Below are positions 11,481 to 50,847 of a stretch of DNA of 50,978 bases, piece after piece. Origin of the DNA: a virus. A program made the position numbers and the translations under genes. Every line of letters begins with the position of its first letter. The first letter of the stretch is position 1. Below the pieces are notes generated by a model. It was given only the letters and a program-made list of their open reading frames with translations, was not told the origin of the DNA and ran no database searches. The stretch is from positions 1 through 50,978 of IMG/VR virus record IMGVR_UViG_2802429591_000001; one strand, written 5' to 3'.

Positions 11481-11912
11481 ATGATTAACAGATTCCGACT
11501 AGGCTTGCTTAAAAACAACAATATAAATAGTAATAAAATAGAAGATGAAGGCATGGATAATAAAATATCAAATGAAGATAAACTTCATAAAATTGAATAT
11601 AGAGTATCTGTGCTTGAAAAAGATAGTGAAAGACAATACAAAGCTACAACAGAAACACTAGAACATATAAGCACACAATTAAATGAAATAACTGTTTATA
11701 TGCGTGATACTTATGCAGAAAGTAAAGTAACTGAACGTGCATTAAAAGAACATGTTCATGATATAGCAAGACTTGAAAATGAACTTAAAGAAAGTAAAAT
11801 TGAACTTCATGAAGAAATAATTAGTGTTGATCAAGCACAACGTAAATGGTTGTATGGTGTAGTTATGGCTGTTTTTAGTGTACTTGCTGCTCAACTTCTT
11901 ATATTACACTAA
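11481..11912 (+). CDS. Coiled-coil protein with C-terminal TM helix (XhlA/holin-accessory-like)
   Basis: Heptads (IEYRVSVLEK, IARLENELKE), then WLYGVVMAVFSVLAAQLLIL. The true start may be a downstream Met. Confidence 0.5.
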   Translation: MINRFRLGLLKNNNINSNKIEDEGMDNKISNEDKLHKIEYRVSVLEKDSERQYKATTETLEHISTQLNEITVYMRDTYAESKVTERALKEHVHDIARLENELKESKIELHEEIISVDQAQRKWLYGVVMAVFSVLAAQLLILH

Positions 11913-11965: not shown

Positions 11966-13345
11966 ATGTTAGTAAATTATGATGAATTACAACAAAAAAT
12001 CACCGATGAACAAAAAGGACTATATGGACTAACAATATTAGATAATCCTTATATACCTGTAGATCCTTACCGCGAACAAGCACTTACAATCATGGATGAC
12101 AGTGCATTTAAACTAATTAGTGGAAGTGCATTCAGTGGAAAAAGTATGCTTCTTGCAATTCTTGCCGTACAATATCTTACACTCCCAGATTATAGATGTG
12201 TAATAATGCGTAACACTTATGACCAACTAATGGCTCCAGGTGGTGTTATGGATACTCTTAAAGATTGGCTTTTGCAAGAAGAAGATATTACTGATTCTAG
12301 AGGAAATGTTGTACAAAAAGGACTTGGAGATCTTACATGTACTTTTAATCAACGTAATAAATGTTTTATAAGTCCTATGGGTGGACGTATTTATTATGAC
12401 TTTGCAAATAGACCTGGTGTACTTAACAAATTTAGGGGAAATACATATCAACGAATTATTGTAGATGAAGGTACAGAACTTGATCCAGAAATTCTTGACT
12501 TTCTTCCTCGTAGTTTAAGACGTGATTATGGTGTTAGTATTCCTCTTAATTATATTATTGCTACTAACCCTAGTCTTAGCCGTGGACGTGAATATATAAA
12601 ACCTAACTTTGTTGATGATAATAGTCCTAATCCATATTTTAGATTAGACTTTAAAATGAATCCACACATAAGAGCAGATGAATATGATGCAATGCTTTCA
12701 CGTATGAGTCCACTCCAACAAGCATTTATGCGTTATGGAGATTGGGATTTTGTATTAGATGAAGGACTTTTACTTACACGTAAACAATTTGAAGATGCAA
12801 CAATAAATGAAACAGATTATAATTGTAGTAATTGTTCTTATGGTGTGATTGGTGTTGATCTTGCTGCTACTGGTTCTGACAAAACAAGTATAACTTATAT
12901 GATGTATATGAATGATGGAAAAATAGTTATTCATGATAATATTCTTATTAGTGATAGTTTTGTAGAAGAACCTCTTATTCAATTTATAGAAAAACAACCA
13001 TTAGTTCATACTGTAGTATTTGAAAAAGAAGGTGGAAGTGCAGCAGAGTATAGTAAAAAACACTTTGAAAATGTTTTATTTGATGTACAACAAAGATGTC
13101 ACTTTTTTATTGAATTTAGTAATGTAACTGAAAATAAATTTGAACGTGCTAGACCTTTAGCAAGAGGAATAAGACAAGAACATGTACTTATTAAACGTAG
13201 TCTTGATAATTATAATACATTACTTAAACAATTTATGTATGTTACACCAGATAAAACAAAGATGCGTGAATTTGCAAGTCCTGATATGCTTGATTCATGC
13301 ACAATAGGATTTAATTATCTTAATCAGTTATTGGGGATTATATGA
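11966..13345 (+). CDS. terL: Terminase large subunit
   Basis: Walker A SGSAFSGKS, Walker B IIVDE, coupling motif IATNP, RNase H-like GVDLA and C-terminal PDMLDS. Confidence 0.92.
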   Translation: MLVNYDELQQKITDEQKGLYGLTILDNPYIPVDPYREQALTIMDDSAFKLISGSAFSGKSMLLAILAVQYLTLPDYRCVIMRNTYDQLMAPGGVMDTLKDWLLQEEDITDSRGNVVQKGLGDLTCTFNQRNKCFISPMGGRIYYDFANRPGVLNKFRGNTYQRIIVDEGTELDPEILDFLPRSLRRDYGVSIPLNYIIATNPSLSRGREYIKPNFVDDNSPNPYFRLDFKMNPHIRADEYDAMLSRMSPLQQAFMRYGDWDFVLDEGLLLTRKQFEDATINETDYNCSNCSYGVIGVDLAATGSDKTSITYMMYMNDGKIVIHDNILISDSFVEEPLIQFIEKQPLVHTVVFEKEGGSAAEYSKKHFENVLFDVQQRCHFFIEFSNVTENKFERARPLARGIRQEHVLIKRSLDNYNTLLKQFMYVTPDKTKMREFASPDMLDSCTIGFNYLNQLLGII

Positions 13346-23571: not shown

Positions 23572-24345
23572 TTGACAAATGAAATATCAGAAAGATTTGT
23601 AAAAGCAATAACTAATTATGTTGACTCAGCACCTACACAAACAACAACACCTAAAATAGGAACAATCACAGAAGTAAGTGACTACATGAATTATTGTACA
23701 ATAACATGGGATGAAGGAACATTAACAAGAGTTCCATGTCATGGATTACCAAAAGTAGGAACGACTGCAATAATAACATTTATAAATGGAAATTATCAAC
23801 AACCATGTGCAATATGTGACCCTAAAAACATACTAGATGAAGAACTTGTAGATGAATATCGTATGGTTAAATGTTTTAATTATCATAACAATGGAGATTT
23901 CACATTTAACAAAACAGGATATACGGGAAATTTTACAATAACTGATAAAGAATCATATACAGATGTAAAAGGTAGATGTGCTAAACTTGAACCTAACCAA
24001 ACACTTACATTTCAATGTGATCTAAGAAATATTATAGATGAAATGGATGTATGGGATTTAAGAGCATTTTATAAGGGATTTTCTAAACTACAAATAAGAG
24101 TTAAAGATTTAGAATATAATGAATATTTACATAATAGACCAACACCAGGATATGATACGATGTATTGGCAGTGTATGTCTAGTAAATGGTATCAAAATAA
24201 GGAAATATTTGTAGGTAATGCTAATGCAGAGATAACATTTAAAAATGTGGGTGATAAAACCATGTGGATAGATGGAATAGTTGTATATGAAAATAGTAGT
24301 GACACTGAATATTATCATAGTAGGGGTGATATAAGTGGCATCTAG
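23572..24345 (+). CDS. Baseplate spike-like (gpV OB-fold) protein with C-terminal beta-sandwich/carbohydrate-binding-like domain
   Basis: KIGTITEV...LPKVGTTAIITFINGNYQQP matches the gpV/gp45 OB-fold pattern. NGDF... resembles the start of a galactose-binding-like domain. RBS GAGGTG favours TTG 23572 over GTG 23560. Confidence 0.55.
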   Translation: MTNEISERFVKAITNYVDSAPTQTTTPKIGTITEVSDYMNYCTITWDEGTLTRVPCHGLPKVGTTAIITFINGNYQQPCAICDPKNILDEELVDEYRMVKCFNYHNNGDFTFNKTGYTGNFTITDKESYTDVKGRCAKLEPNQTLTFQCDLRNIIDEMDVWDLRAFYKGFSKLQIRVKDLEYNEYLHNRPTPGYDTMYWQCMSSKWYQNKEIFVGNANAEITFKNVGDKTMWIDGIVVYENSSDTEYYHSRGDISGI

Positions 24346-27300
24346 TTATTCTTATAATATTGAACTTGATTGTGAAGCTAATACTAGTCAACTTAAAGAT
24401 GTAGCAACAGCATTACAAAAAATACAGAAACTAGCTAGTAAAGAGATTACAGTAGAAACAAATACGGGTAAAATAGTATCAGATGCAAAAAATGCAGAAA
24501 ATGCACTTAAAAATGTAGGAAGTGTAGGTAAAAAACTAAAAACTGATCTTACATTTAATGCACCGGGATTAAATACTATAACTACACAATGTAACAAAGC
24601 TGTAAATAGTCTTAATAAAGTTTCATCTAGTGCTAATAAAGTTAAAAATTCACTGAATGGAATCAAAGGCGGAGATTTTAGTAAACTTGGAACTAGTGTA
24701 AGTAAATCTGTATCTTCCATGAAATCACTTAATAAATATATAGGAAAAATGGGGGATAATGCGGGGAATATTGATGGAAAACTTTTCAAACAAATTCAAC
24801 AATATGCTCGGACAGCTGCCAGTTCATGTAAAACTTTAGCAACTGCAATTAAAAGTGTTGCAAGTGCAATTAAAAGTATAAGTCCTACTAAAATTACAAA
24901 CATAGGTAAATCTGCTGAGTCCTCAGCTAATAAAATTGATAGTTTACGAAAAGCATTAGTGCATATTAATAGTTCAGCTTCAAATATTGATGGTAGTGGA
25001 TTTAGTAAACTTGCAAGTTCTATTAAAGATGCAAAAAGTGCTGCTGATTCATTAAATAAATCATTAGCTAATACTAATAAAGCTGGTGGAAAAGTAGGGA
25101 GTGTAGGTGGAAAATCTGGGGGCTCTACTGGAAAACAAGCAACAAAATCCGGATCTTCTGCAGGTGGAGGATTTGATTATAGTGGAGATGATTTGTTAGG
25201 ACTAGTTGGTCTTGATTCACTCTATGATATGACTATTGGTAATGCTGCAACAAAAGAAGTAAACTCAATAATTTCAAGACAAAGGGGATATGATGTACCA
25301 GCAATTGATAAAAAAACTAATGAATCATGGGTTAAGATGAATGATCTTATACCTGCAATGAATGGTATACAGGCATCTACTGGAGCTACTGGTGCTCAAA
25401 TGAATAAATATATGCCTGCTATTGCTGATTTTGGTACATATGTTCAGGCATTAGGATATTCTGCAGATGTTGCAAACAGTGCAATGTTCGATTTATCTAA
25501 AGGTGCTAAAGGTGCATTTGCATCAATAGATAACTTTGGTATAACTGAAGATTCACTTAAAGCTACAGGTGAATGGAATGGAGACTATAATGATCTAGAT
25601 GGTTTCTTTAAAGCAGTTGGAAAAATTTCTGAAGGAGCTTCAGAATTTCAGGATACTTTCACAGGGAAATTTATTAGATTTAAAAAGGGTTTATCAACTG
25701 CTGGTGGTGAACTTGGTAAAGCTGTTCTCCCAACTTTGACGAGTTTAGTTGAGGGTTTTTTATCATTAAACCAAGCAACTGGAGGAAATTTAGCTAAAGG
25801 TGTAATGCTTTTTGCATCTGCACTTACCGGACTCACTGTTGGTAGTATGGTAATAAACCGTATTAGTGAAGCATTTTCTAAAGTTAAGGGTAGTATTTCT
25901 AATGCAAAAGAAGGACTTAAATCCTTTAAAAGTCTTCTTAGTCATATTAAAGATAAAGGTCTACGCGGTGGACTTGATTCTTGGAAAAAAGAAAAAGAGC
26001 AGAAGAAAAAAGATAAAGAATGCGAAGATCCATGTAGTAAAGTAATTGAAAAACAAGAAAAGAAAAAAAAGAAAGCCAAAGACAAAAACAAAGACAAACC
26101 ACTAAGTGAATGTGACTGTGATAAAGGCGTCAGTGGAAAAGCAAAAGACAAAGATAAAAACAAGGGTAGTAAAGGAAAAGACAGTGGCAAACCTGTAAGT
26201 GAATGTCCATTAGAAAATAGGGGATTACCTGTAAATACAACATCAGGTAATACTAAAACTAAAAAAGGAAAAGGAAGCTCATTATATAATAAATATGGAA
26301 ATATCCAACCTAATAATACTACTTGTTCAGGAAAGAATATGCCAACAGTTAGTAATAGTTGTGGTTGTGGTTTAGACGCTTCTAAAAGTGGTAATACTGC
26401 AGGTCAAAGTACTGGTAAAGCTGGTAAAAAAGGTGGAAAAAACACGGGAAAAACACGTAAAGGTGTAGAAAGTGTAGGACGAAGCCTTGATAAAACCAAT
26501 AAAAAAGCAGGTACATTTGGTAAATCAGTTAATAAAATGGGAAATACTAAAGCATTTTCTAATTTAAATAATACTGTAAATACTCTTGGTGGAAACTTTG
26601 GAAAAACAAGCACACAAATAACAAACAGTGTAAATAGTATGGGTAACTCATTTTCTACAATGGGTAGTAAAATGGGTAATAGTATAACAAGTGGACTTAA
26701 TACAAGTCTTAACACTGCTAATACCACAGTTGGTAAACGTGGTGGAAAACTTGGAAGTATCTTTAGTAAAGGATTTGGAAAATCTAGTAAACTAGGTGGA
26801 ATCATTGGAAAACTAGGAGGTACTCTTCAAGGTGGATTAGGTCAAAGTATAGGTAAAGGTCTAAGTGGAATCGGTGGAATTGTAGGTAAAGTCGGTGGAA
26901 AACTTGGAGGAGTTCTAAGTAAAGGAATGGGAAGTACACTCGGTAAAGGACTTGGTGGAACTATTGGTAAAATAGGTGCTAAAGTCGGTGGAAAAGCACT
27001 TGCTGCTGTTGGTGTAAATGCTATTCCTGTTATAGGACAAATTATAAGTGCTGTATTAACATTAACTACTGTTCTTGATTTACTTGGTATTGATTGGTTT
27101 GGTCCTCTTTGTGATGGTATTAAAAACTGTGCTAGTTGGCTTACTACTACTCTTGCTCCTGCTTGGGATTGGATTAAGGGTGCTGCTGGTAATACTTGGG
27201 AATGGCTTAATAGTACTTTCCAAAGTCTTATGCCTACACTTCAAAGTATTGGACAAGGCATAATGTCTGGTCTTGGTGGGGTTTTCAGTTGGCTTTCTGA

Positions 27301-29413
27301 GGTTGGTGGTCAAGTATGGAATGGATTATGTCAAGGTGCTTCCATGGTGTGGCCCGTAATTCAACAAATAGGTAGTGCTATTTGGGATGGTCTTGGTGGT
27401 GCTTTCCAATGGCTTCAAACTAATGGTCCTATTATATGGGATGGTATTTGTCAAGCTGCACAACAAGTATGGCCCATTATTTGTCAAGGTGCTAGTATGC
27501 TTTGGAGTGCTATTCAACAAATAGGTCCTAGTATTCAATCTTTCCTTATTGATCCTTTACAAACTCTTCAAGATATTGGTGGTCAAGTTTGGGATACTCT
27601 TTGTAGTGGTGCTGAACAATTACAAGGTGTTCTTGAAGGTGTTTGGAGTGTTATTCAACCTATTATTGATGGTGCTAAGTCAATTCTTGGTCTTGGTGGT
27701 GATACTGCTGGTAATGGTAGTACTTTTGGTGGAGGTTCTCAACAAGCTAATTCAAATGCTGCTACTGATCCTTCTGCGGGTTTGTCTGGTTTGATGACTA
27801 GTATTGAAGGTATTAAACAAAGTGTTGGTTCTTTAGCTCAGACTGTTACTACTACTATTCAGAGTATAGTTCAAGGTGCTTTAAATAGTATTTTAACTAT
27901 TATTAATACGATTACATCAAGTATTACTACTGTAATTACTACTATTGCTACTAGTATTCAAGGTGTTATTACTACTATTGCAACTAGTATTGGTACTATT
28001 GTCACTACTATTGCTACTAGTATTCAAGGTATTATTATGACCATTACTACATGTATTGGTACTATGGTTTCAACAATTGGAGCTACAATTAGTGGAATAT
28101 TAGGAAGTATTACAGCAAGTATAACAGGTATTTTAAGTGCTATTGCAGGTAGTATAACAAGTATCATAACAGGTATAGCAACAAGTATTACAACCATCAT
28201 AACAGGTATTACAGGTGCAATACAAGGAGTAATAAGTGGAATTACTTCAAGTATTACAATGATGATTACAACCATAGGAGCAACAATAACTGCTATAATG
28301 GGAACAATTACAGCAAGTATAACCGGTATACTAGGGGCTATAGGATCAACAATAACAGCTGTAAGTTCAAGTATAACTAGTTTACTTACAACATTAGCAA
28401 GTACTGTAACTACAATGGCAACAAGTATTCCAACAATGGTTACAACTGTTGTAGCTGGTTTCACAACACTTGGTGCAACAATTACAGGTGTTCTAATGCC
28501 AGCTATCACCATGTTTTCAACAACATTTATAGCTGCTATAACTAATATTAATGCACAAGCTATTATGCTTAATGCTAGTTTTGCGGTTCTTGCGGCTAGT
28601 CTTACTGTAATGGGTGCATCTGCTCAACTTATGGCTACTAGTTTTGTAGCTGCTAGTGCTGCAGTTACTCTTATTAATTCTGGTATTACTCAAATTCTTG
28701 CAAATCTTAATGCAATGAGTGGAGCGGTTGCTAGTGCTTGTGCTGCATTTATGCAATTACCCGCCGCTGTAAGTGGTGCTTGTAGTGCCGCACAGGGAAT
28801 TCTTAGTAATTTTAGTTCTACAGCTATTAATATAATTGTTCATTGTGCATCAGCTATGAGTAGTGGTTTTGCTGCTAATTTCCATATTGCTCAAGCTATT
28901 AGTGCTGAAATGTCTCGTGCATGTAGTAATCTTAGGTCTTGGGGTAATAAAATGGTATCTATTGCAAGAGAAATAGGTACTCAAGTTAAAGAAGCTATTC
29001 TTCAAGTTGGAATGGGTATTAACAGTCCTGGTTATGTAGCTCATGGTATTAAAGATGAAATGATTTATTCTAAAGGATTTATGGAAGATCATCAATCTGA
29101 ACTTTATAAAACTGCTGCTGCAACTGGTAGAAGTATTAATGATGGTTTTGAACGTGTAGGTTATGGACAAGCTCCACGTGTAACTGCTGCTGATGTTTTC
29201 CCTAGTGTTGGTCAACAATCAAATAATGATAATAGTAAAACTGCTAATACTAATAATAATAGTCCTACAGAGATTACTTTTAATATTAATAATCCTCGTT
29301 TGGATAGTAAAGAAAATATTGAACAATTTGCTGATGCTGTTATACAAAAACTTACATTTGATACTGTAAGAGCTGGAAGAACAGTTAATAATACAATGTA
29401 TATGGGAGATTAG
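24335..29413 (+). CDS. Tape measure protein
   Basis: 1692 aa, Ala/Gly/Ser/Thr-rich helical repeats, 11-residue Trp and Ile/Thr periodicities, located in the tail module. GTG start after GGGGTGA. Confidence 0.9.
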   Translation: MASSYSYNIELDCEANTSQLKDVATALQKIQKLASKEITVETNTGKIVSDAKNAENALKNVGSVGKKLKTDLTFNAPGLNTITTQCNKAVNSLNKVSSSANKVKNSLNGIKGGDFSKLGTSVSKSVSSMKSLNKYIGKMGDNAGNIDGKLFKQIQQYARTAASSCKTLATAIKSVASAIKSISPTKITNIGKSAESSANKIDSLRKALVHINSSASNIDGSGFSKLASSIKDAKSAADSLNKSLANTNKAGGKVGSVGGKSGGSTGKQATKSGSSAGGGFDYSGDDLLGLVGLDSLYDMTIGNAATKEVNSIISRQRGYDVPAIDKKTNESWVKMNDLIPAMNGIQASTGATGAQMNKYMPAIADFGTYVQALGYSADVANSAMFDLSKGAKGAFASIDNFGITEDSLKATGEWNGDYNDLDGFFKAVGKISEGASEFQDTFTGKFIRFKKGLSTAGGELGKAVLPTLTSLVEGFLSLNQATGGNLAKGVMLFASALTGLTVGSMVINRISEAFSKVKGSISNAKEGLKSFKSLLSHIKDKGLRGGLDSWKKEKEQKKKDKECEDPCSKVIEKQEKKKKKAKDKNKDKPLSECDCDKGVSGKAKDKDKNKGSKGKDSGKPVSECPLENRGLPVNTTSGNTKTKKGKGSSLYNKYGNIQPNNTTCSGKNMPTVSNSCGCGLDASKSGNTAGQSTGKAGKKGGKNTGKTRKGVESVGRSLDKTNKKAGTFGKSVNKMGNTKAFSNLNNTVNTLGGNFGKTSTQITNSVNSMGNSFSTMGSKMGNSITSGLNTSLNTANTTVGKRGGKLGSIFSKGFGKSSKLGGIIGKLGGTLQGGLGQSIGKGLSGIGGIVGKVGGKLGGVLSKGMGSTLGKGLGGTIGKIGAKVGGKALAAVGVNAIPVIGQIISAVLTLTTVLDLLGIDWFGPLCDGIKNCASWLTTTLAPAWDWIKGAAGNTWEWLNSTFQSLMPTLQSIGQGIMSGLGGVFSWLSEVGGQVWNGLCQGASMVWPVIQQIGSAIWDGLGGAFQWLQTNGPIIWDGICQAAQQVWPIICQGASMLWSAIQQIGPSIQSFLIDPLQTLQDIGGQVWDTLCSGAEQLQGVLEGVWSVIQPIIDGAKSILGLGGDTAGNGSTFGGGSQQANSNAATDPSAGLSGLMTSIEGIKQSVGSLAQTVTTTIQSIVQGALNSILTIINTITSSITTVITTIATSIQGVITTIATSIGTIVTTIATSIQGIIMTITTCIGTMVSTIGATISGILGSITASITGILSAIAGSITSIITGIATSITTIITGITGAIQGVISGITSSITMMITTIGATITAIMGTITASITGILGAIGSTITAVSSSITSLLTTLASTVTTMATSIPTMVTTVVAGFTTLGATITGVLMPAITMFSTTFIAAITNINAQAIMLNASFAVLAASLTVMGASAQLMATSFVAASAAVTLINSGITQILANLNAMSGAVASACAAFMQLPAAVSGACSAAQGILSNFSSTAINIIVHCASAMSSGFAANFHIAQAISAEMSRACSNLRSWGNKMVSIAREIGTQVKEAILQVGMGINSPGYVAHGIKDEMIYSKGFMEDHQSELYKTAAATGRSINDGFERVGYGQAPRVTAADVFPSVGQQSNNDNSKTANTNNNSPTEITFNINNPRLDSKENIEQFADAVIQKLTFDTVRAGRTVNNTMYMGD

Positions 29414-29420
29414 ATAAGAT

Positions 29421-30320
29421 ATGGTTAAGTATTATGGATTAGAACAAGATAAAAAAAATTATTTTATTATGAATGGTCATCCATTTAATGTTGATCTTGA
29501 AATGGAATCAACAAGTACGCTTAATATTAAGAAAACACCTATGTATGTAAGTAGTAAAGATTGGGGTTATAATTATATTCAATGGTTAAGTTTCAGTGGT
29601 GAAGAATTAAAATTAACTGTTTATTCAAAAAATAGTGAATCTTATACTGGAAACCCGGTTTATAAAGGAGATAATCGTAAAACAAAATTTTATGATAAAC
29701 CTAAAACTCCACATGCTGTACTTAAATTTTGGGCTCAAAACTTTATTACAGTAACTGTTGAAAGTAAACTTCAAAGTGTAGAAAATGGTGATTATAAAAT
29801 AACAGATTTTTCACAAAGAAATATGACTCAGGATTTAGTACGAAGTGATTTTACATTAACTGAGTATAACCAAGAAGATACTGATATAACACGTTCTTAT
29901 TATGCTCCAGAACAAGCAGGTCGTAATGATGCTAGTGATACAACAGGTACAGCTCTTGAACTTGAAAAAATAGGAGAACATAAACAAACTTGTACATGTA
30001 CCCCGGGGGCTGAGACTGGTGTATGTACTGCTCCTTATGAAGAAGAAGTAGTTTCTATTCAGAAATTACTTAGACGTGTAGGTTATTATCCTCATTATAC
30101 TAGTGTTAATAATATGTTTCAAAGAATGGATGGGAAATATTGTTATTATACAAAAAAAGCTGTTGAGGATTATCAGAAAGCTAATGGACTTAGTGTTACT
30201 GGTGTATTTAATAAAGCTGTGAAAGATAAGTTAAAAAAAGAATTATGTAGTGATGATGCTGATGATGATAAGAAAACTACTAATTCTTCTACATCATCCA
30301 CAACAACTAATACAAAATAA
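29421..30320 (+). CDS. Tail tube initiator / baseplate protein with C-terminal PG_binding_1 domain
   Basis: Directly after the tape measure gene. EVVSIQKLLRRVGY...MDGKY...TKKAVEDYQKANGLSVTGV is a peptidoglycan-binding-1 motif. Confidence 0.65.
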   Translation: MVKYYGLEQDKKNYFIMNGHPFNVDLEMESTSTLNIKKTPMYVSSKDWGYNYIQWLSFSGEELKLTVYSKNSESYTGNPVYKGDNRKTKFYDKPKTPHAVLKFWAQNFITVTVESKLQSVENGDYKITDFSQRNMTQDLVRSDFTLTEYNQEDTDITRSYYAPEQAGRNDASDTTGTALELEKIGEHKQTCTCTPGAETGVCTAPYEEEVVSIQKLLRRVGYYPHYTSVNNMFQRMDGKYCYYTKKAVEDYQKANGLSVTGVFNKAVKDKLKKELCSDDADDDKKTTNSSTSSTTTNTK

Positions 30321-30759: not shown

Positions 30760-32601
30760 ATGGCTGATGGAAAGTTATGTGTAATAGCAACAGATAACAT
30801 TGACAGTAGAAGTAAAGATCAACAAAGAATGGAAAAAGTAGCAGCAGCACTAGAACAAGCAGGATTTAGAACAAAAATAGGAGGAATAGGTCCTAACACA
30901 CACTATTCTGCTGCATCACTTCTTGAAAGTGGAGGATTCTTTGTAAATATATATGGTGGTGCATGTGCAGGTACTCTATGGGATATAACTCAGAAATACT
31001 ACTTAGATAAAATTGGAAATAATACTCAAGTATGTGCATTTACTCATCATGCAAAAGATATAACAAATCTTAACTTTTTAGAAAGAGCTCATGATGACAA
31101 TTTTAGTCGTAGTAGTTTTAAAGGACTTGATAAACCTGGAGAGTTTCTAAATCAACATGGAATAAAATGGTTTCATAGTAAAGGTGAAGACCAATTTCCA
31201 CAAGAAGTAGTAGCCTGTGTAACTGGTGCAAGTACGGGTGGTGGAGGTACTACAGAAGTTATTGATGGATTTATGGAATCAGGGCGGGGTGGTGCTAAAA
31301 CTTCAAGTCCTCAATTTTGGAATGCAAAGAATTTTAGTCCTTATTATAAAGTTCCATTCAGTGAATTTGAAATAACCGAAGAAGATCTTGAAACAAAGAC
31401 TGCTACATTTACAACGCCTGAACGTATAGATCTTACAAGTGGACGTGTAAGTGTGCTTATTAATGGTGATGTACCTAGTTTTGGGGGAATTATTATTAAA
31501 CGTGAATATGATCCATCTACACGTCTTTATAAATATACATGCCAAGATTGGATGTCTAGAATAATGGCTAATAGTATTTATGCTGTTCATAGTGGTAAAC
31601 ATACAGTTTATGAATGGATTAAGAAAGTACTTATTGATATTGGTGTACCTAGTACTGGTCTTGAACCTGTAGATCATTATGACACGGCTATTGATAAAAA
31701 GATAGAAGATGAGATTAAAAAAGATAAAGATGATAATAAGGAAACCGGTTTAGACAGTGGAAGTAGTGGTAGTTCAAGTAGTAATGGTGAAGATAAAAAA
31801 GTAACTATTACAAAGAAAAATGAGACGGGTAAAACAAAGGATAAAAATAAACGAAATCCATTTAAAAAAACACCTGCAGGGATTTATGATTGTCTTACAA
31901 TTTCTGATTATATACGTACATTACTTTTTGATTATGGTGTGCATGTTCGTTTTTATGGTGATATTAATGGTATTCCACACTTTGAATCATATGATGTAGA
32001 TAAATATATGAGAACAGGGTTAATTATTGATCAAAATGTAGGTGTTGAAGAGGATTATAGTAATACATTTGATATTACTGATATTGTAACACAGACTATG
32101 ATTAAAAATATTAGTGCAACTAATCCTATAGGAGAACTTTATACAAGTAAAGATATTTTTGGAGTAAATTTAGCACAATATGTAGGTCGTATGGGTACAA
32201 TTGTAGATAATCCATCTACTGGAAGTGGTGGTACTACAAAAAGTAGTGGTGATTTTAAGGATGCTTCAGGTAATGTGTACACTAAAGATCAAATTATGGA
32301 AACTGAAATGAAAGGAAGTTGTGGAAGAAGTAGTAAACATCCTGCATCTGGTGGAAAAGTTAAAAAATATTGGCTTAATAGGTGTGGTGGATGTAATAAA
32401 AGTGGTGTATTAAAAAATAATCCTAAAGGTGTACCTGAAGGTGAAATTACTTGTGGTTCTTGTGATATGGATTATTGTGGTGCATGTGGATATGAGAAGA
32501 TTAATGGTTCTGAGAAACATTTAACTGAAGTATTCCCTAGCTCACTTGAAAGTACTAGTAATGATGAAGAATCTACTGAAAGTACTAGTGAAACTGATTA
32601 A
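30760..32601 (+). CDS. Baseplate hub N-terminal part, with N-terminal candidate cell-wall enzyme domain and Cys-rich Zn-binding domain
   Basis: Central FGGIIIKREYD...YKYTCQDW and VRFYGDINGIPHF are hub/Tal-like. N-terminal GIGPNTH...YGGACAG...LERAHDDNFS domain. C-terminal cluster CGGC...EGEITCGSCDMDYCGACG. Confidence 0.6.
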   Translation: MADGKLCVIATDNIDSRSKDQQRMEKVAAALEQAGFRTKIGGIGPNTHYSAASLLESGGFFVNIYGGACAGTLWDITQKYYLDKIGNNTQVCAFTHHAKDITNLNFLERAHDDNFSRSSFKGLDKPGEFLNQHGIKWFHSKGEDQFPQEVVACVTGASTGGGGTTEVIDGFMESGRGGAKTSSPQFWNAKNFSPYYKVPFSEFEITEEDLETKTATFTTPERIDLTSGRVSVLINGDVPSFGGIIIKREYDPSTRLYKYTCQDWMSRIMANSIYAVHSGKHTVYEWIKKVLIDIGVPSTGLEPVDHYDTAIDKKIEDEIKKDKDDNKETGLDSGSSGSSSSNGEDKKVTITKKNETGKTKDKNKRNPFKKTPAGIYDCLTISDYIRTLLFDYGVHVRFYGDINGIPHFESYDVDKYMRTGLIIDQNVGVEEDYSNTFDITDIVTQTMIKNISATNPIGELYTSKDIFGVNLAQYVGRMGTIVDNPSTGSGGTTKSSGDFKDASGNVYTKDQIMETEMKGSCGRSSKHPASGGKVKKYWLNRCGGCNKSGVLKNNPKGVPEGEITCGSCDMDYCGACGYEKINGSEKHLTEVFPSSLESTSNDEESTESTSETD

Positions 32602-32640
32602 ATATTATAATTTTATTTTTTTTGGAGGTGAAATTAAAAA

Positions 32641-33210
32641 ATGCCAACTTATCCATGGGATAGAAGAAAAAAGGAAAGTTCTAAACATTATGATATATTT
32701 ATAAAATATGTAGAATTAGGAATGGGAAATAGAAGTGTTGATAACTTACTAGAAAAACATCCAGATATCAAACTTAAAAAAAAGACAATTCAAAATATAA
32801 GCAGTAAATGGGAATGGGTTAAAAGAGCTGAAGCATATGATGAACATGAAACATTAGAAAGACATAAAAGATATGAAGGAAAACTAAACGTGATACTAGA
32901 TACTGAAGTAGAAAGATTAGTAGATCGTTTAAAATATATAAATGAGAATATAATTGAATTAAATAATAATTATGATGGAAGTAAACAAACATCAATATCA
33001 CATAGCTTAGCACAAAACGTTAATGCACATAAAAGTACTCTTGAAGAATTATTCATGATAACAGGTAAACCAACCGAAATACGGGACGTGAAAAATAATA
33101 CAACTTTAAAAGGAAAATTAGAACACAATACAAGTATAGAATACGATGCACAAGCACACCGTGAAGCAATAGAAGATCTACTACAAAAAAAAGAAAACAA
33201 GGAGGATTAA
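32641..33210 (+). CDS. Terminase small subunit-like HTH protein
   Basis: WDRRKKESSKHYDIF..Y.ELG..RS...SSKWEWVKRAEAYD matches a common phage TerS-like N-terminal pattern. Helical middle and basic/acidic C-tail. Confidence 0.6.
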   Translation: MPTYPWDRRKKESSKHYDIFIKYVELGMGNRSVDNLLEKHPDIKLKKKTIQNISSKWEWVKRAEAYDEHETLERHKRYEGKLNVILDTEVERLVDRLKYINENIIELNNNYDGSKQTSISHSLAQNVNAHKSTLEELFMITGKPTEIRDVKNNTTLKGKLEHNTSIEYDAQAHREAIEDLLQKKENKED

Positions 33211-33214
33211 TCTA

Positions 33215-34195
33215 ATGGCAGACAACACAAGCGATACAACCACTGGAACTGAAGCTGGTACAACAACCACGGATACAACAAATACTAGTAGTAATTCTGG
33301 AGAAACAAGTCAAAACGTGGCAAAGAATGATCCAGCTAAAAACAAGAAAAAAGCAGGTCTTACAATGGCTGAACCTATACGTAAAATGTTAGAATTTAAA
33401 ATTAAGTTTCCAGGAAGTATTAAAGGTGTTCATACAAATCAATTTTGTTGGATAGCTGTTGATGATAATTTCTACGATGATTTTTATGGAGATATTGCAG
33501 AGATTATAGGTGTAAGTAAATTTGCACGTTATATGGGATTTGAAAAAAATAGATTTTATATTGAAGGTGTAAAGACAAGTTTTTCACTTACTAATGGTAT
33601 TGAAACAGAATTAACTCTTAATCCTTTTGCTTCTACTTATTCTGAGTATATGAAAAATCAACAATCAGCTGAAAAAGCATTACAAGATGCTATGAATAAG
33701 AATAATGGTAGTGGTGGTGGGGGTAGTGATACTACTGGTACAGGTCTTGTTAATATGAGTGGTAATGATTGTACTCCTACATTTGATTTAGCACCATACA
33801 CTGATACAATAAAAAGTACTAAGATTGGAAATAGTAGTGCAAATTATGCTACAGATACTGCTAATATGAGTGGTAAAGAAGCAATACTTGATATATTTAA
33901 TCGCTTTAGGTATTCTGGATATCCAAATAATCGTACGTGTCCTCAGAAAATGTGGACTAAAAGTGGTGCTATACGGGGAAATTGTGCAGATATCTCAAGG
34001 CTTGTAAAATGTGTTGGAGACGTACATGGAATGAATGTAGGTATTAAACACGTGCCTAATCACTATCATAATCTTATTGAAGTTAATGGTAAAGTGTATC
34101 GTTTTGATTGTTGTTTTAAAGGTGGACGTGCATCTTCTGGTTATGGTGGTGGAATAGTAAATAATCTTAATCGTAATGGTGGTCCATGGTGTTGA
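33215..34195 (+). CDS. Baseplate hub C-terminal part fused to transglutaminase-like (Pei-type) cysteine peptidase
   Basis: RFYIEGVKTSFSLTNGIETELTL resembles the hub C-terminal strands. Gly linker, then GNCAD (Cys codon 33983), NHYHN (His 34061) and YRFDC (Asp 34106), a candidate Cys-His-Asp triad. Confidence 0.65.
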   Translation: MADNTSDTTTGTEAGTTTTDTTNTSSNSGETSQNVAKNDPAKNKKKAGLTMAEPIRKMLEFKIKFPGSIKGVHTNQFCWIAVDDNFYDDFYGDIAEIIGVSKFARYMGFEKNRFYIEGVKTSFSLTNGIETELTLNPFASTYSEYMKNQQSAEKALQDAMNKNNGSGGGGSDTTGTGLVNMSGNDCTPTFDLAPYTDTIKSTKIGNSSANYATDTANMSGKEAILDIFNRFRYSGYPNNRTCPQKMWTKSGAIRGNCADISRLVKCVGDVHGMNVGIKHVPNHYHNLIEVNGKVYRFDCCFKGGRASSGYGGGIVNNLNRNGGPWC

Positions 34196-42251: not shown

Positions 42252-43688
42252 GTGTCATTTATAAGATTAGATAACACAGAAGTAACACGAAGTAGTATAA
42301 TTGAACGTATGATAATGTTCTATAAAGAACGATATGGTGAAGATTTAACTGAAGTTTGTGATCTTGCCGATGGAAGTGAAATGAGAACATTACTTGAAAG
42401 TATTGCAGTAGAAATTTATGATTTATATTACCAGGATGATGTGAGTTGTAGACAAGCATTTGTAAAAACAGCTGTAGGATATTATCTTGATATGAAAGGA
42501 TGTGAATTTCATCTTACACGTTCACCATCTGCACAATCTACAGGATATTTAAATTTTAGTTTTAAAAGTGGACCTATTACAGTTGATTATACTATTCCTC
42601 AAGGATTAATGGTACTTGACCGTAAAACGGGTAATGAATATTATACAACTAGTAGTATGGATATTAAAGCGGGTGAACTTGAAGTAGATGTGCCTGCTAT
42701 TAGTGTTCTTGAAGGTCTTGATTATAATTGTGAAACTGGAAGACTTACAGCATTTAAGAATATGAGTCAAGTTCGTGGTGATTTACAAGTTACTAATAAA
42801 ACTGCTTTTACTGGAGGGCGTAATGCTGAGACAGATGAGCATTTTAGACAACGTATTCTTGAAGCTATGAAAAGTGAAGCATTTGGTACAGTTCAAAGTT
42901 ATACTAATGCACTTGAAAATATAGAGGGTATTCATGATGTAGCTTTTATTAATCCTAAGGATGTAACAGATCATCTTGTAGGTGGTAAACGTTGCACAGC
43001 ATGTACACGTGTATGTTATATTAATTCAAGTAATAAAACTAAGATTAATAATAATGATAGTACTAATAATACGAATAAACCTGTAGATTATGAATCAGCA
43101 GATGAAGATATGCTTTTTAAGGTTACAAATTATTTTACAAATCAAGATAATCTTGTTATTGGACATAGTTTTCATGTATCTGCTTGTAATTGTAGACGTC
43201 TTTATTTTAAAATTGAAGCATATACAAGTTTAAGTAATATAGATACTGATGAAATTATGAAAGCTCTTCGTACATATTTTGATGGTGGAACATATGGTGG
43301 AATGATTTATCCCGGTTTAGGTATTGGTGAGGCTGTACGTATGTATGGACTTATTGATGTGCTTGAACGCGTGCCAGGTATTGAACAAGTAGTAAATATT
43401 CTTAATATTAATTATCGTACTACTTATCCTGAAAATGCTAAGTGGGAACAACTTGGAAATGAAACGGATTGGGTATGGACTGATAGTATGGGTTTTACTT
43501 ATCGTAAAGCTACTAAAGATGGAAAACCATCTGCACAGTGGGGAGAAAGACGTTTTAGAACCCTTACTGTTCCAGTAAATTATGTAGCTTATCTTGATTC
43601 TATGAAGAATAGTAGTCAAGATAGTAATAGTCCTGATATTTTATTCGAATCTATAGGTACTGTTCCACCTACTGAAAGAGGAAACTAA
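42252..43688 (+). CDS. Baseplate J-like wedge protein
   Basis: TAVGYYLD.KG...LTR, GLDYNCETG and FTGGRNAETDEHFRQRILEA. Confidence 0.9.
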   Translation: MSFIRLDNTEVTRSSIIERMIMFYKERYGEDLTEVCDLADGSEMRTLLESIAVEIYDLYYQDDVSCRQAFVKTAVGYYLDMKGCEFHLTRSPSAQSTGYLNFSFKSGPITVDYTIPQGLMVLDRKTGNEYYTTSSMDIKAGELEVDVPAISVLEGLDYNCETGRLTAFKNMSQVRGDLQVTNKTAFTGGRNAETDEHFRQRILEAMKSEAFGTVQSYTNALENIEGIHDVAFINPKDVTDHLVGGKRCTACTRVCYINSSNKTKINNNDSTNNTNKPVDYESADEDMLFKVTNYFTNQDNLVIGHSFHVSACNCRRLYFKIEAYTSLSNIDTDEIMKALRTYFDGGTYGGMIYPGLGIGEAVRMYGLIDVLERVPGIEQVVNILNINYRTTYPENAKWEQLGNETDWVWTDSMGFTYRKATKDGKPSAQWGERRFRTLTVPVNYVAYLDSMKNSSQDSNSPDILFESIGTVPPTERGN

Positions 43689-48152: not shown

Positions 48153-49760
48153 ATGGCTATTGATTGTAAAACAGTAAATATAAGAAAAGGAAGTATTGGA
48201 GAAGATGTAAAAACATTACAAACCTATCTATCAGAAAAAAAATTATATACAGGAAGTATAGATGGAAAATGTGAAAAATACACAGTAAATGCAATAAAAA
48301 ACCTACAAAAAAAATATAAAAACCTTGCAGTAGATGGAGTATTTGGTCCTATAACATGTATAACTTGTGGAATTAATACAGCAACACCAACAAATACACC
48401 TATAGACACGGGTTGGAAATCACCCGCCACTGTATCACAAGATAGTCGATGGGATGTAATTAATCCTAATTTTGGGTGTTATGAATTTAATAATCTTAAA
48501 GCAATCAAGGTAGCAAATACAAGTTCTAGTGCATATATTCCAACAGATGGTGGAGTAAAAAAAGATTATCATGGTCCTGTAGTGTATGTAAATAATTTTG
48601 GATTTAATATACCTAAAGATGCAACAATTAAAGAAGTATATGTACGTACATGTACTAAATGTGGAAATGGATGGAATGAAGGAGTACAAACCAAATTATT
48701 AAAATTAAAAACTACAGCAAGTACTACAGATTTTGGTGTAGGAAAAGATATAAGTATTCATCCTAAATGGCCATTAAGATCATGGAGAGATACAACTGGA
48801 GGAGGAACGCCTGAAAAATGGGGTGTACAACTCACACCTGAACTTGTGAATAGTACTAATTTTGGATTTGTATATCAATGTACTGGAACTCGTGGTGGTG
48901 ATCATGGGTGGATTATGCCTAGAATTGCTTTTCTTCAGATGAGAATAGTTTATGTTAAAAATAATACAAGTACAACTTCATCACCAGTTGTAACACCTGA
49001 TTTTGATTTAGAATTTAGTTTTGAGGATAGTAAAGGAAATCCGCTAGTAGATACGGGGGATGAAAAGAATATTTATATAAGTACAGATCCTAAGGATAAT
49101 AGAGAATTTATTACATTTGTAATTAAGTATATTGAAAAGGATAGTAATAAGAAATATCCAGCAGGGCAAACGCCTATTGTTAATTTAAAATCGAATTCAT
49201 TAAAACTTTCACGTAAAAAAAGTTCTACATATCAAACTAAAACATTAAGTGTAAAAGAAATAAATGCAACTTATGATTCAGATGGAAAAGCAAATAATAG
49301 ACCTGTATATTATTCTCGTGTTATGATTTCTCCTTATATTACACAGGGTGAATGTAGTTTCACTGTGGAATGTGGAAGTGTTAAAAAAACGTTTAAAGTT
49401 CCAGTTGATGTGAATATAGATTCAGATACATTAGATATTTCTGATATAAATTTATTAAATTTCATGATGGATGGAACTCAAAGATGTATTATTCATTCAT
49501 GTAAATTTGAGGAATGTAAAGCATATGCTGGTGCAAGTTATGCTACTGTTAATATGCGTGATGATGTTTATCGGACAAATAATACACATGATTATGCAAG
49601 TAATGAAGCAAGTAAGCCATGTAAATTTAAGGATGATTTTAGTAAGTGTCCTCATCGTAGTAAGGATCTTAAAGCATGTCCATTTACTAAAACAAAATAT
49701 TGTTATGGTGCAGGATATGTGGACTTGTATGCTGAAGTTAATAGATGTAAATTAAATTAA
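48153..49760 (+). CDS. PG_binding_1 domain protein with jelly-roll-like tail domain
   Basis: N-terminal GSIGEDVKTLQTYL...IDG...AIKNLQ...VDGVFGPIT. Then TGWKSP...NNFGFNIPKDATIKEV, a pattern seen in phage tail proteins. Confidence 0.7.
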   Translation: MAIDCKTVNIRKGSIGEDVKTLQTYLSEKKLYTGSIDGKCEKYTVNAIKNLQKKYKNLAVDGVFGPITCITCGINTATPTNTPIDTGWKSPATVSQDSRWDVINPNFGCYEFNNLKAIKVANTSSSAYIPTDGGVKKDYHGPVVYVNNFGFNIPKDATIKEVYVRTCTKCGNGWNEGVQTKLLKLKTTASTTDFGVGKDISIHPKWPLRSWRDTTGGGTPEKWGVQLTPELVNSTNFGFVYQCTGTRGGDHGWIMPRIAFLQMRIVYVKNNTSTTSSPVVTPDFDLEFSFEDSKGNPLVDTGDEKNIYISTDPKDNREFITFVIKYIEKDSNKKYPAGQTPIVNLKSNSLKLSRKKSSTYQTKTLSVKEINATYDSDGKANNRPVYYSRVMISPYITQGECSFTVECGSVKKTFKVPVDVNIDSDTLDISDINLLNFMMDGTQRCIIHSCKFEECKAYAGASYATVNMRDDVYRTNNTHDYASNEASKPCKFKDDFSKCPHRSKDLKACPFTKTKYCYGAGYVDLYAEVNRCKLN

Positions 49761-49785: not shown

Positions 49786-50847
49786 TTGTTAGATTGTAAT
49801 AAAATAAATATAAGAAAGGAAAGTAAAGGAAACGATGTTAAGGAATTACAAACGTATCTTACATTCCGAGGGTATTATGATGGAAAAATAGATGGTAGTT
49901 GTGGAGATTATACAGTAAGTGCAATAAAGAAACTACAAAAAGCAGTAGGTGGACTAGTAGTTGATGGAATATTTGGACCTCTTACATGTAAAGTAAGTGG
50001 AATTAATGGACGTGATATAAGTGGTACAAGTCAAACAATAGATCTTGATATTTGGAAGAATATGATGACACGATATGATAATTTCTTTAAACAACATGGA
50101 CAAGAACCAGTTATATGTTACATTAATTATACTACAAAATATGAATATATAACAAATACGAAATATCAAGATATCAAAAAAAGATATGATACATATATTA
50201 AAGAAAATGGAAGAGAACCAAAATTTGTATACATTAATAAAACACAAATAACTCAACCAAATACAACTACAAATAAACCATCAACTAATACAATAATTAC
50301 TTATTTTTCAAGTACTCCACATTATACAAGTCAAGGATGTAACAGGTTAGGACAGTGTACACCATATTATTGTGGTGTTCATTCATTACATCAAGTACTA
50401 CGTAAGTTTGGTATAACAGATTATAGTGAAAGTACACTTGCTGCATGGGCTGGTACAACAACAGCAGGGACAAGTCATGGTGGAATTAATACGGCAATAA
50501 AAAAAGTGAATAGTAAAAAAGGAACTAATATAGAAATAAAATGGTTAAATTTTTCAGATCTTGGTAATACTACTAGTGCAAGATTTAAGGAATTAGGAAG
50601 ACGTATTAATAATAGTAATTGTGATTGTATTGTACATAATCTTTATCGTAACCGGTATGGTCATTATGAAACAATACATAGTATTAACACTAAAACACAG
50701 AATGTTCAAGTACTTAATAGTCTTGGTACACGTACAGGTAGTTCTTATAAGGGATATATTGAAAATAGAAGTTTTAGTACTTTTCAATCATATATCAGTA
50801 ATACCCCTGGTGGTCAGCCTAGTATTGGATTAATTACTAAAAAATAG
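49786..50847 (+). CDS. Endolysin: PG_binding_1, two pseudomurein-binding-like repeats and a C39-like (PeiR-type) endoisopeptidase
   Basis: PG-binding motif. Repeats MMTRYDNFFKQHGQEP..CYI and IKKRYDTYIKENGREP.FVYI. Catalytic Q...YYCG, GHYE and VLNSLG. Confidence 0.8.
   Translation: MLDCNKINIRKESKGNDVKELQTYLTFRGYYDGKIDGSCGDYTVSAIKKLQKAVGGLVVDGIFGPLTCKVSGINGRDISGTSQTIDLDIWKNMMTRYDNFFKQHGQEPVICYINYTTKYEYITNTKYQDIKKRYDTYIKENGREPKFVYINKTQITQPNTTTNKPSTNTIITYFSSTPHYTSQGCNRLGQCTPYYCGVHSLHQVLRKFGITDYSESTLAAWAGTTTAGTSHGGINTAIKKVNSKKGTNIEIKWLNFSDLGNTTSARFKELGRRINNSNCDCIVHNLYRNRYGHYETIHSINTKTQNVQVLNSLGTRTGSSYKGYIENRSFSTFQSYISNTPGGQPSIGLITKK

Follow-up and report, generated by a model that had tools for sequence, protein, structure and literature searches.

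We find that the window, a stretch of 50,978 nucleotides (positions 1 to 50,978 of IMG/VR virus record IMGVR_UViG_2802429591_000001), probably encodes a viral tail-tip hub made of two polypeptides that together bear three accessory modules: a Pei-type domain, a domain termed here RAHDD, and a Cys-rich module. The window comes from a myovirus-type provirus of a Methanobacteriales host, and close homologues are labelled Methanosphaera or Methanobrevibacter. The relevant genes of the tail module, with terL for reference, are as follows.

11966..13345: terL
24335..29413: tape-measure gene (1692 aa), assigned from its size and position
29421..30320, + strand: PG_binding_1 protein (299 aa), directly 3' of the tape-measure gene (Pfam E 1.8e-12 for aa 208-271, a C-terminal wall-binding domain)
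30760..32601, + strand: putative hub part 1 (P0001, 613 aa), in which the RAHDD domain is followed by the first two-thirds of a gp27/gp44-type hub and, at the C-terminus, by a Cys-rich module
32641..33210, + strand: TerS-like gene (189 aa), between the hub genes and outside the hub (phrog_6299 'terminase small subunit', E 1.1e-16)
33215..34195, + strand: putative hub part 2 (P0003, 326 aa), opening with a Thr/Ser-rich leader, which precedes the C-terminal hub domain and, last, a Pei-like cysteine peptidase domain
42252..43688: Baseplate_J, at the end of the tail-module order given here

The full order is tape-measure gene, PG_binding_1 protein, a 121-aa ORF, part 1, the TerS-like gene, part 2, an 88-aa ORF, a phrog_975 baseplate protein and Baseplate_J, an order that sets the hub genes, within a contractile tail module, after the tape-measure gene and ahead of the genes for the baseplate wedge. 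A PG_binding_1 protein is found at the equivalent position in the related loci L003, L004, L005 and L006, and the product of 29421..30320 is likely a hub-associated baseplate protein. In L003 a Phage_sheath_1 gene (a weak match) lies upstream.

The original prediction was of a hub-like sequence divided between two ORFs; both ORFs are present and intact, and both map onto one fused hub family of ~800-aa proteins by hhalign with probability 100%. Part 1 aa 195-492 align to residues 42-305 of this family (E 3.8e-42) and part 2 aa 39-306 to residues 517-772 (E 5.4e-44), so that, at the level of sequence profiles, the hub-in-two reading is more than a chance resemblance. The hub segments of the two genes are:

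31342..32235, + strand: hub N-part of part 1, the profile-aligned span aa 195-492 (hhalign, and BLASTP to P0042), within which ~aa 310-375 form a low-complexity insert
33329..33664, + strand: C-terminal hub domain of part 2, ~aa 39-150

Relatives carry the same pieces as a single ~800-aa protein. One such fused protein, P0042 (798 aa), is encoded in L003 between the PG_binding_1 protein and Baseplate_J, and has three BLASTP matches to the window's proteins: its residues 31-324 with part 1 179-514 (E 5e-26), 327-462 with part 1 4-135 (E 4e-27), and 523-762 with part 2 51-298 (E 4e-17). The structure model of P0042 has a pLDDT of 76.6 overall and ~90 in the hub blocks. Residues 16-620 of the model align to whole single-chain hubs, giving a complete hub fold in this natural fused homologue; the matches include MuSo2 (3cdd_A, Z 18.4, 303/328 residues, rmsd 3.6), Mu gp44 (1wru, Z 17.7, 307/325 residues), the phiCD508 needle (Z 17.3), diffocin (Z 17.1) and T4 gp27 (Z 12.6). 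Because the alignment runs across whole hubs, the segment that matches the N-domain of part 2 is an integral hub domain. The break between the two genes falls at a surface loop that holds an inserted domain in single-chain relatives. As single sequences, P0001 and P0003 have no match in Pfam, PHROG, NCBIfam or PDB sequence searches; they are assigned by profile homology to the fused form, and their membership in the gp27/gp44/gpD-type hub superfamily is at the fold level only.

We propose that the window encodes a central baseplate hub of the T4 gp27/Mu gp44/XkdQ kind built from two polypeptides, in which part 1 would give the N-terminal two-thirds of the hub fold and part 2 the last ~110-residue hub domain, the two probably joining into one trimeric hub. 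Hubs of this group (Mu gp44, P2 gpD, T4 gp27 and XkdQ; PDB 1wru, 3cdd, 1k28 chain D and phiCD508 9g8s) likewise follow a tape-measure gene and a protein with a wall-binding domain, and Mu gp44-type hubs have the whole hub fold in common with the model of the fused homologue (Z 17-18), the hub serving in both as a scaffold for extra domains. The window's hub differs from them in coming from two genes, cut at the insertion loop, in carrying accessory domains specific to an archaeal wall, and in being recognised by no Pfam or PHROG model.

A possible objection is that one hub gene was recently broken into these two ORFs and lost its function, through insertion of the TerS-like gene in a decaying provirus. 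The completeness of the provirus record is estimated at 86%, and a foreign-looking gene does sit exactly between the halves. However, the same two-gene arrangement is found in the related contigs L004, L005 and L006, with intact genes and with no TerS-like gene at this position, and the split is kept in more than 20 relatives. Homologues at 35-65% identity number more than 30 for part 1 and more than 20 for part 2, each hub gene in the window is preceded by a ribosome-binding site, part 1 closes with its own conserved Cys-rich module, and the functional residues are all retained. This objection is thus largely refuted, and we regard it as most improbable. The TerS-like gene is rather a lineage-specific addition to an older hub split. 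It lies ~19 kb downstream of terL, its product is 30% identical to the putative TerS of MSTV1, and a word-based homologue search with the protein found only a 99% identical copy; the independent contig L042 has the same gene order, TerS-like gene included, at 99% identity.

Returning to the two-polypeptide hub, the C-terminal domain of part 2 is likely, judging by sequence comparison, a Pei-type wall peptidase.

33749..34192, + strand: Pei (C71)/transglutaminase-like domain, aa 179-326 of part 2
33983-5, 34061-3 and 34106-8, + strand: codons of the candidate triad C257, H283 and D298

A transglutaminase-fold Cys-His-Asp domain akin to PeiW and PeiP had been predicted here, and the evidence agrees: C257, H283 and D298 are invariant across 23 homologues of part 2, and the top PDB matches of the family profile, its best solved relatives, are PeiP (8z4f_B, E 9.2e-4) and PeiW (8jx4_A, E 0.013), with whose Cys and His those of part 2 align. 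No Pfam model hits P0003 itself at E<=1. A relative whose C-terminus is 61% identical to the part 2 domain, P0115, does match PF12386 (27.4 bits; cut-off 22). Compared with the Pei of MSTV1, part 2 reaches an hhalign probability of only 8%, with Cys, His and Asp nonetheless aligned. A fold match comes from the equivalent domain in the model of the fused P0042, that is, from a homologous domain and not from the window's own, with PeiW 8jx4_B at Z 11.1 (120/147 aligned) and PeiP 8z4f_B at Z 10.7.

PeiW and PeiP (Peptidase C71; PDB 8jx4 and 8z4f) have a transglutaminase-like domain whose Cys, His and Asp are ordered and spaced as they are in part 2. They are soluble release lysins with N-terminal pseudomurein-binding repeats, whereas Pfam finds no PMBR in P0003 and the hub domain stands in that place. 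The part 2 domain is also too divergent for a direct Pfam match, and has four invariant Cys beyond those of PeiW and PeiP. Since it is fused to a hub domain, it should be a part of the virion that is used at entry. A transglutaminase fold can also cross-link, not just cleave; we consider that the Pei-type domain would most likely, on contraction of the tail, make local cuts in the peptide cross-links of pseudomurein, much as bacteriophage tail-associated lysins act at entry. Those lysins (T4 gp5 lysozyme, and Tal/hub proteins with peptidase or CHAP domains) also place a wall-degrading domain on the central tail tip, and the phi812 and NF5 hub chains are among our fold matches. The differences are that the target here would be archaeal pseudomurein, that the domain is Pei-like rather than a lysozyme, M23 or CHAP domain, and that a second module comes from an uncharacterised family.

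That second module is the N-terminal domain of part 1, which carries the predicted motifs GIGPNTH, YGGACAG and LERAHDDNFS, the last encoded at 31078..31107.

30760..31224, + strand: RAHDD domain, aa 1-155 of part 1
30793-5, 30817-9, 30964-6, 31084-6, 31090-2 and 31093-8, + strand: codons of D12, D20, C69, R109, H111 and D112-D113

Conservation over 218 proteins defines the set D12, D20, C/D69, R109, D112 and D113. D12 is present in 203/203, D112 in 195/200 and D113 in 193/200. Position 69 is C in 150 and D in 63 (n=216), and position 111 is H in 139, W in 32, Y in 7 and S in 7 (n=199), being other than His in about 30%; covariation between positions 69 (C/D) and 111 (H/W) was sought and none was evident. 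The domain is modelled with a pLDDT of 95.4 as a generic flavodoxin/CheY-like sandwich, for which the best Foldseek match has E 3e-4 with TM <0.5 and the best VIA match has Z 10.6, to receiver and B12-binding domains. Neither Pfam, PHROG nor NCBIfam has a match for it, no glycosidase or other hydrolase family stands out in Foldseek PDB, VIA wide or BFVD searches, and on these sequence comparisons the RAHDD domain is a family without earlier description. One candidate identity, an SGNH/GDSL hydrolase, a group marked by the blocks GDS, G, GxND and DxxH and a Ser-Asp-His triad, was rejected: strand 1 ends in (S/T)-D-N rather than G-D-S, His111 is often replaced by W, Y or S, and SGNH/GDSL proteins appear among the fold matches only at E ~0.01 (BFVD).

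The family has 165 cluster representatives at E<=0.001 among 1.84 billion, and occurs in 271 of the 329 genomes of the phylum of a Methanobacterium genome, with 1-8 matches each. Its partners in the 74 members scanned are PMBR (29 members), Big_3_5 (25), C71 (5), Transglut_core (5) and C39 (2). In cell proteins the domain comes after signal peptides and pseudomurein-binding repeats, short members have signal-peptide-like N-termini, and some small proteins consist of PG_binding_1 plus RAHDD, a lysin-like layout. One siphovirus protein, labelled 'Endopeptidase tail', also contains the domain (BFVD E 1.3e-6, TMq 0.68). The original prediction placed this domain in Methanobacteriales wall-associated proteins, and the link is supported by the placement behind signal peptides and pseudomurein-binding repeats and by the breadth of occurrence in the phylum. 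In particular, secreted PMBR-containing Methanobacteriales proteins that end in RAHDD (P0072, P0074 and P0083) have the ~140-residue domain in common with part 1, with all conserved residues and 35-45% identity; unlike part 1 they belong to cells, bear a signal peptide, PMBR or Ig-like domains, and lack a hub. The P0199 search of viral contigs found only the PG_binding_1 motif, and the contigs of P0199 and P0203 are too short to give gene context.

In the virion, the RAHDD domain would most likely act on or bind the wall by way of a pocket that D12, C/D69, R109, D112 and D113 make up; either an enzyme or a binding module is conceivable. A far-reaching reading, to which we give somewhat less than an even chance, is that RAHDD represents a class of pseudomurein hydrolase not recognised before, built on a flavodoxin-like scaffold, which would serve housekeeping wall remodelling in methanogens and have been recruited to the viral tail tip. 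More specific is the claim that it cleaves glycan, originally located in a conserved H/D/D cluster. That site is not supported: the His invoked, His111, varies (H/W/Y) and no glycosidase fold was matched. A glycan hydrolase, which would give the hub both a glycan cutter and a peptide cutter, is unlikely in our estimate, although carboxylates predominate among the invariant residues (D12, D112 and D113, with position 69 often Asp), the residue at position 111, aromatic or His, could stack on a sugar, and RAHDD sits behind binding repeats where an active domain would be expected, both in cell proteins and in the small PG_binding_1 fusions. There is also a weak language-model similarity to nucleoside 2-deoxyribosyltransferase-like N-glycosidases, whose score with the nucleoside 2-deoxyribosyltransferase/TIR group (0.87, below 0.9) makes it a lead only; one family member has a TIR_2 match (E 6e-4). 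Against a glycan hydrolase is the lack of any glycoside-hydrolase fold or family match, although a new hydrolase type could still escape such searches.

A doubtful alternative is a peptidase, amidase or esterase with its nucleophile at position 69, whose target in pseudomurein would be a peptide or amide bond different from the one that Pei cuts. In the model, G-A-C-A-G lies between strand 60-65 and helix 70-75 in a nucleophile-elbow-like arrangement, and 213/216 members have Cys or Asp at position 69, set in a small-x-Nu-x-small context. Elbows of this sort occur in flavodoxin-fold hydrolases such as class I glutamine-amidotransferase-like peptidases, and pseudomurein contains gamma-glutamyl and epsilon-lysyl bonds. 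However, there is no conserved His for a base (H111 and H48 both vary), and the fold searches did not single out structures of the class I amidotransferase-like or SGNH kind. Somewhat less doubtful, while still on the unlikely side, is a non-catalytic role as a metal-ion-dependent or plain adhesion module that would dock the hub and cell-surface proteins onto pseudomurein. The acidic cluster and C/D ligand at the C-terminal edge of the flavodoxin-like sheet resemble the cation sites of receiver and vWA-type domains, which dominate or appear among the fold matches; RAHDD is often joined with Ig-like domains typical of adhesins, and stands beside a C71 domain in five members, as a binding module would. 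But most cellular members already bear PMBR repeats, so that a second binder would be redundant; 33 proteins are RAHDD alone, some with just a signal-like N-terminus; and the PG_binding_1 plus RAHDD proteins would pair one binder with another and lack an active domain.

Given the likely Pei-type peptidase of part 2 and the wall-associated domain of part 1, the virion probably has its own tools to breach the archaeal wall; the predicted two-enzyme drill for glycan and peptide is one possibility and not a finding. In the non-subscription literature that we searched, pseudomurein-degrading enzymes are described solely as release lysins (PeiW, PeiP and PeiR), and we found no paper on a pseudomurein glycosidase, on the passage of tailed-virus DNA through pseudomurein, on a hub-borne Pei domain or on the RAHDD family. 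In a 2024 review (PMC10791045), the hydrolases of archaeal walls are termed "very mysterious". A hub-mounted Pei-like domain, as the sequence predicts it, would offer a concrete and testable entry mechanism. The RAHDD family, although small, is present in most genomes of the phylum, secreted, and tied to pseudomurein-binding repeats, which makes it a good candidate for an unknown step of wall turnover; were it to cut glycan, it would be the missing pseudomurein glycosidase. It might also be of use, as a reagent or a target, in lysing or inhibiting methanogens of the gut and rumen. Finally, natural fused and split hubs side by side, with the cut at an insertion loop, make this a case of tail-tip module swapping.

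The third proposed module of the hub is small, Cys-rich and probably zinc-binding, and stands at the C-terminus of part 1 (aa 521-576); a Cys-rich, Zn-like domain had been predicted in this ORF.

32320..32490, + strand: Cys-rich module, with C521, C542, C545, C565, C568, C573 and C576

All of these Cys are invariant in 33 homologues except C576, which is nearly so. By tblastn the module matches tail proteins of MSTV1, vir249 and PhiF1 (E 4e-9 to 6e-8); zinc-finger chains match it weakly, below significance.

Elsewhere in the window, a second Pei-like domain was looked for in the 535-aa PG_binding_1 protein (48153..49760) and is absent. A lysin-type protein, the C39 endolysin of the original prediction, lies apart from the hub as was claimed.

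49786..50847, + strand: lysin-type protein with PG_binding_1 (E 2e-13) and Peptidase_C39 (25.9 bits; cut-off 22)

The hub region of the window is a piece of a contractile-tail module. Every long ORF of the window is on the + strand, GC content is about 30%, and the completeness of the provirus record (IMG/VR, 50,978 bases) is estimated at 86%.

Tail-module and flanking genes of the window, in map order.
11966..13345, + strand: terL (phrog_979), with a capsid-type protein next
24335..29413, + strand: tape-measure gene (1692 aa), assigned from its size and position
29421..30320, + strand: 299-aa protein with a C-terminal PG_binding_1 domain
between the PG_binding_1 protein and hub part 1: 121-aa ORF
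30760..32601, + strand: hub part 1 (613 aa)
32641..33210, + strand: 189-aa TerS-like ORF (phrog_6299)
33215..34195, + strand: hub part 2 (326 aa)
downstream of part 2: 88-aa ORF, then a baseplate protein (phrog_975)
between the phrog_975 baseplate protein and Baseplate_J, + strand: large Ig-domain proteins
42252..43688, + strand: Baseplate_J
48153..49760, + strand: 535-aa protein with an N-terminal PG_binding_1 domain, directly upstream of the C39 lysin
49786..50847, + strand: PG_binding_1 + Peptidase_C39 protein, at the end of the module

The original prediction saw one hub split over 30760..32601 and 33215..34195; its quoted motifs lie in the window where it placed them, and the split holds at the homology level, through fused relatives and profile comparison. 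For part 2 there are more than 20 homologues of 316-360 aa. The search with part 1 returned over 30 full-length homologues, which are 600-770 aa long and in some cases carry a Methanosphaera or Methanobrevibacter label, and also single-chain proteins of about 800 aa that contain both parts. One of these single-chain proteins, P0042 (798 aa), aligns to part 1 twice, through its residues 31-324 (part 1 residues 179-514, E 5e-26) and 327-462 (part 1 residues 4-135, E 4e-27), and to part 2 through residues 523-762 (part 2 residues 51-298, E 4e-17). Profile-profile comparison with the fused family gave 100% probability for both parts (E 3.8e-42 for part 1, 5.4e-44 for part 2). The P0042 gene occupies the place expected for a hub in its locus, L003, with a PG_binding_1 protein on one side, Baseplate_J on the other and a sheath-like gene upstream. 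An AlphaFold model of P0042, built from a 27-sequence alignment (pLDDT 76.6, about 90 in the hub blocks), matched contractile-system hub proteins in Foldseek, with E down to 5.5e-9. On re-examination of these matches, model residues 16-620 aligned to complete single-chain hubs: MuSo2 3cdd_A (Z 18.4, 303/328 residues, rmsd 3.6), Mu gp44 1wru (Z 17.7, 307/325, chain residues 3-346), the phiCD508 needle (Z 17.3), diffocin (Z 17.1) and T4 gp27 (Z 12.6). Because these alignments cover both flanks of the inserted domain, the model's equivalent of the part 2 N-terminal domain (residues 506-620) is an integral hub domain rather than a separate spike. By way of P0042, then, the two window proteins are predicted to form one hub fold, at the level of homology.

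The C-terminal domain of part 2 appears to be Pei-like, that is, related to the pseudomurein endoisopeptidases PeiW and PeiP. Over residues 179-325 it shares 61% identity with the C-terminus of P0115, a protein with an N-terminal PG_binding_1 domain that scores above threshold for Pfam Peptidase_C71 (Pei), with 27.4 bits (cut-off 22). As P0003 (part 2) by itself reached no Pfam model, we describe its domain as Pei-like and do not claim C71 membership for it. The prediction of a transglutaminase-fold Cys-His-Asp domain is supported: the top solved relatives of a profile of 23 part 2 homologues are PeiP (8z4f_B, E 9.2e-4) and PeiW (8jx4_A, E 0.013), N-C-A-D aligning opposite N-C-T-D with the His matched, and C257, H283 and D298 are invariant among the 23. 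The corresponding domain in the P0042 model resembles the catalytic domains of PeiW (Z 11.1) and PeiP (Z 10.7). The window has only this one Pei-like domain; a second was sought in the 535-aa PG_binding_1 protein at 48153..49760, where about 450 residues beyond PG_binding_1 are without a family match, and none was found there. Elsewhere, proteins P0106-P0121 (about 420-550 aa, with one or two PG_binding_1 domains) end in a domain 55-62% identical to that of part 2, an identity which points to recent exchange of the domain between hub and lysin-type genes.

The N-terminal domain of part 1 (aa 1-155), here called RAHDD after its LERAHDDNFS motif, forms a small and distinct family: among 1.84 billion cluster representatives, 165 were related to it at E<=0.001, and Pfam, NCBIfam and PHROG have no model of it. 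The structure model is confident (pLDDT 95.4) and shows a five-stranded flavodoxin/CheY-like sandwich. Its matches are generic, with a best Foldseek E of 3e-4 against the PDB at TM below 0.5 and, in a wide VIA comparison, a best Z of 10.6 among receiver domains, B12-binding domains and halves of sugar-binding proteins. The one clear BFVD match is an 'Endopeptidase tail' protein of a gut siphovirus (E 1.3e-6, TMq 0.68, 22% identity), which is probably a genuine relative; other matches there, to SGNH, vWA and nucleoside-transferase-like proteins, were weak.

The original prediction placed this domain in wall-associated proteins of Methanobacteriales, which is supported by pseudomurein-binding repeat (PMBR) partners, signal-like N-termini and genome distribution. 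Among 74 longer members, 29 have pseudomurein-binding repeats, 25 Big_3_5, five Peptidase_C71, five Transglut_core and two Peptidase_C39. Numerous short members resemble a signal peptide joined to the domain, an example being the cellular protein P0133 (187 aa), and a few are PG_binding_1 plus the domain (P0199, 257 aa, L029 101..874; P0203, 243 aa; both from short contigs). The layout of these two is that of the local lysins (PG_binding_1 + C39, PG_binding_1 + Pei-like), with RAHDD replacing the active domain. Named genome loci are from Methanobacterium, Methanobrevibacter or other Methanobacteriaceae/Methanobacteriota in 20 of 21 cases, and in the phylum to which a Methanobacterium genome belongs the domain was found in 271 of the 329 genomes, with 1-8 matches each. 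The sole non-methanogen label is L024 (JAFRCC010000006.1, a Clostridia bacterium MAG), which is probably mis-binned, since its match statistics nearly equal those of the Methanobrevibacter contig L022 from the same goat-gut project.

What this domain does can be weighed from its conserved residues and its partners. In 218 proteins (per-position totals vary), D12 is invariant (203/203), and conservation is 199/205 for D20, 211/217 for G67, 177/200 for R109, 195/200 for D112 and 193/200 for D113; position 69 is Cys in 150 and Asp in 63 (together 213/216). The window copy has the consensus residue at all of these and at position 111. In the model the conserved residues follow closely on strands 1 and 3 and on a short strand at 106-108, and in flavodoxin-like folds such positions usually make the active or binding site. 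The pattern is consistent with a pocket built on carboxylates or a metal and having an aromatic platform, and not with a triad that depends on His. In the H/D/D active-site cluster first proposed the His varies, position 111 being H in 139, W in 32, Y in 7 and S in 7.

A glycan hydrolase seems unlikely, and we consider a peptidase, amidase or esterase that works through residue 69 equally improbable. A non-catalytic binder is somewhat likelier than either, though still less likely than not, and some other function takes up the remaining probability. Partner architecture favours an active domain: binding repeats stand in front of it, and stand-alone copies and lysin-like PG_binding_1 fusions occur.

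The PG_binding_1 protein follows the tape-measure gene in the window and in all four related loci (L003 9190..9990; L004 6660..7478; L005 664..1530; L006 4628..5614). Many bacterial myophages carry a LysM protein at this position. The arrangement suggests a conserved wall-binding baseplate component of these archaeal viruses.

The central baseplate would bear three wall-directed modules: the PG_binding_1 protein, RAHDD on part 1 and the Pei-like domain on part 2. Contraction would drive the hub into the pseudomurein layer, where the Pei-like domain may open peptide cross-links locally while RAHDD either cuts a second bond type or keeps the tip attached to the wall. Release would be the task of the C39 protein at the module end. 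These are the most likely roles in entry and release, judged from the tail-associated lysins that bacteriophages carry.

Bacteriophages offer well-known examples of lysins mounted on the hub. Here, by contrast, the predicted target is an archaeal wall, the Pei-type domain is in a predicted virion protein, and two genes encode a hub that has natural fused counterparts. Also new is RAHDD itself, an uncharacterised, taxonomically narrow wall-associated family and the part most worth bench work. A literature search, with incomplete coverage of subscription journals, found no description of an archaeal-wall hub lysin, a virion Pei domain, a two-gene hub or the RAHDD family. A 2024 review (PMC10791045) treats only Pei and PeiR, and for egress only.

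The hub split is older and the intervening gene newer. In L004, L005 and L006, related contigs with a two-gene hub, the part 1 and part 2 genes are neighbours, separated by 16 to 151 bases that hold no further gene. The 189-aa protein encoded between them in the window hits the 'terminase small subunit' family phrog_6299 (E 1.1e-16) and shares 30% identity, over 86%, with the putative TerS of Methanobrevibacter smithii tailed virus 1 (MSTV1). Its gene has its own ribosome-binding site, and that of part 2 sits within its 3' end. The placement is not an assembly error, since L042, from an independent sequencing run, repeats the order at 99% identity. The TerS-like gene (32641..33210) is about 19 kb downstream of terL; the ORF immediately upstream of terL (11481..11912) had no PHROG match.

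A Cys-rich module closes part 1 in the split family (window 32320..32490), at the point where the fused family has its RAHDD domain; the break thus falls at a loop able to accept inserted domains. Seven Cys of the module are conserved in 33 homologues. By tblastn (E 4e-9 to 6e-8) it reappears in other Methanobacteriales viruses, within large tail proteins of MSTV1 (L001 6001..6252), vir249 (L002 8001..8240) and PhiF1 (MK994522 31999..32211).
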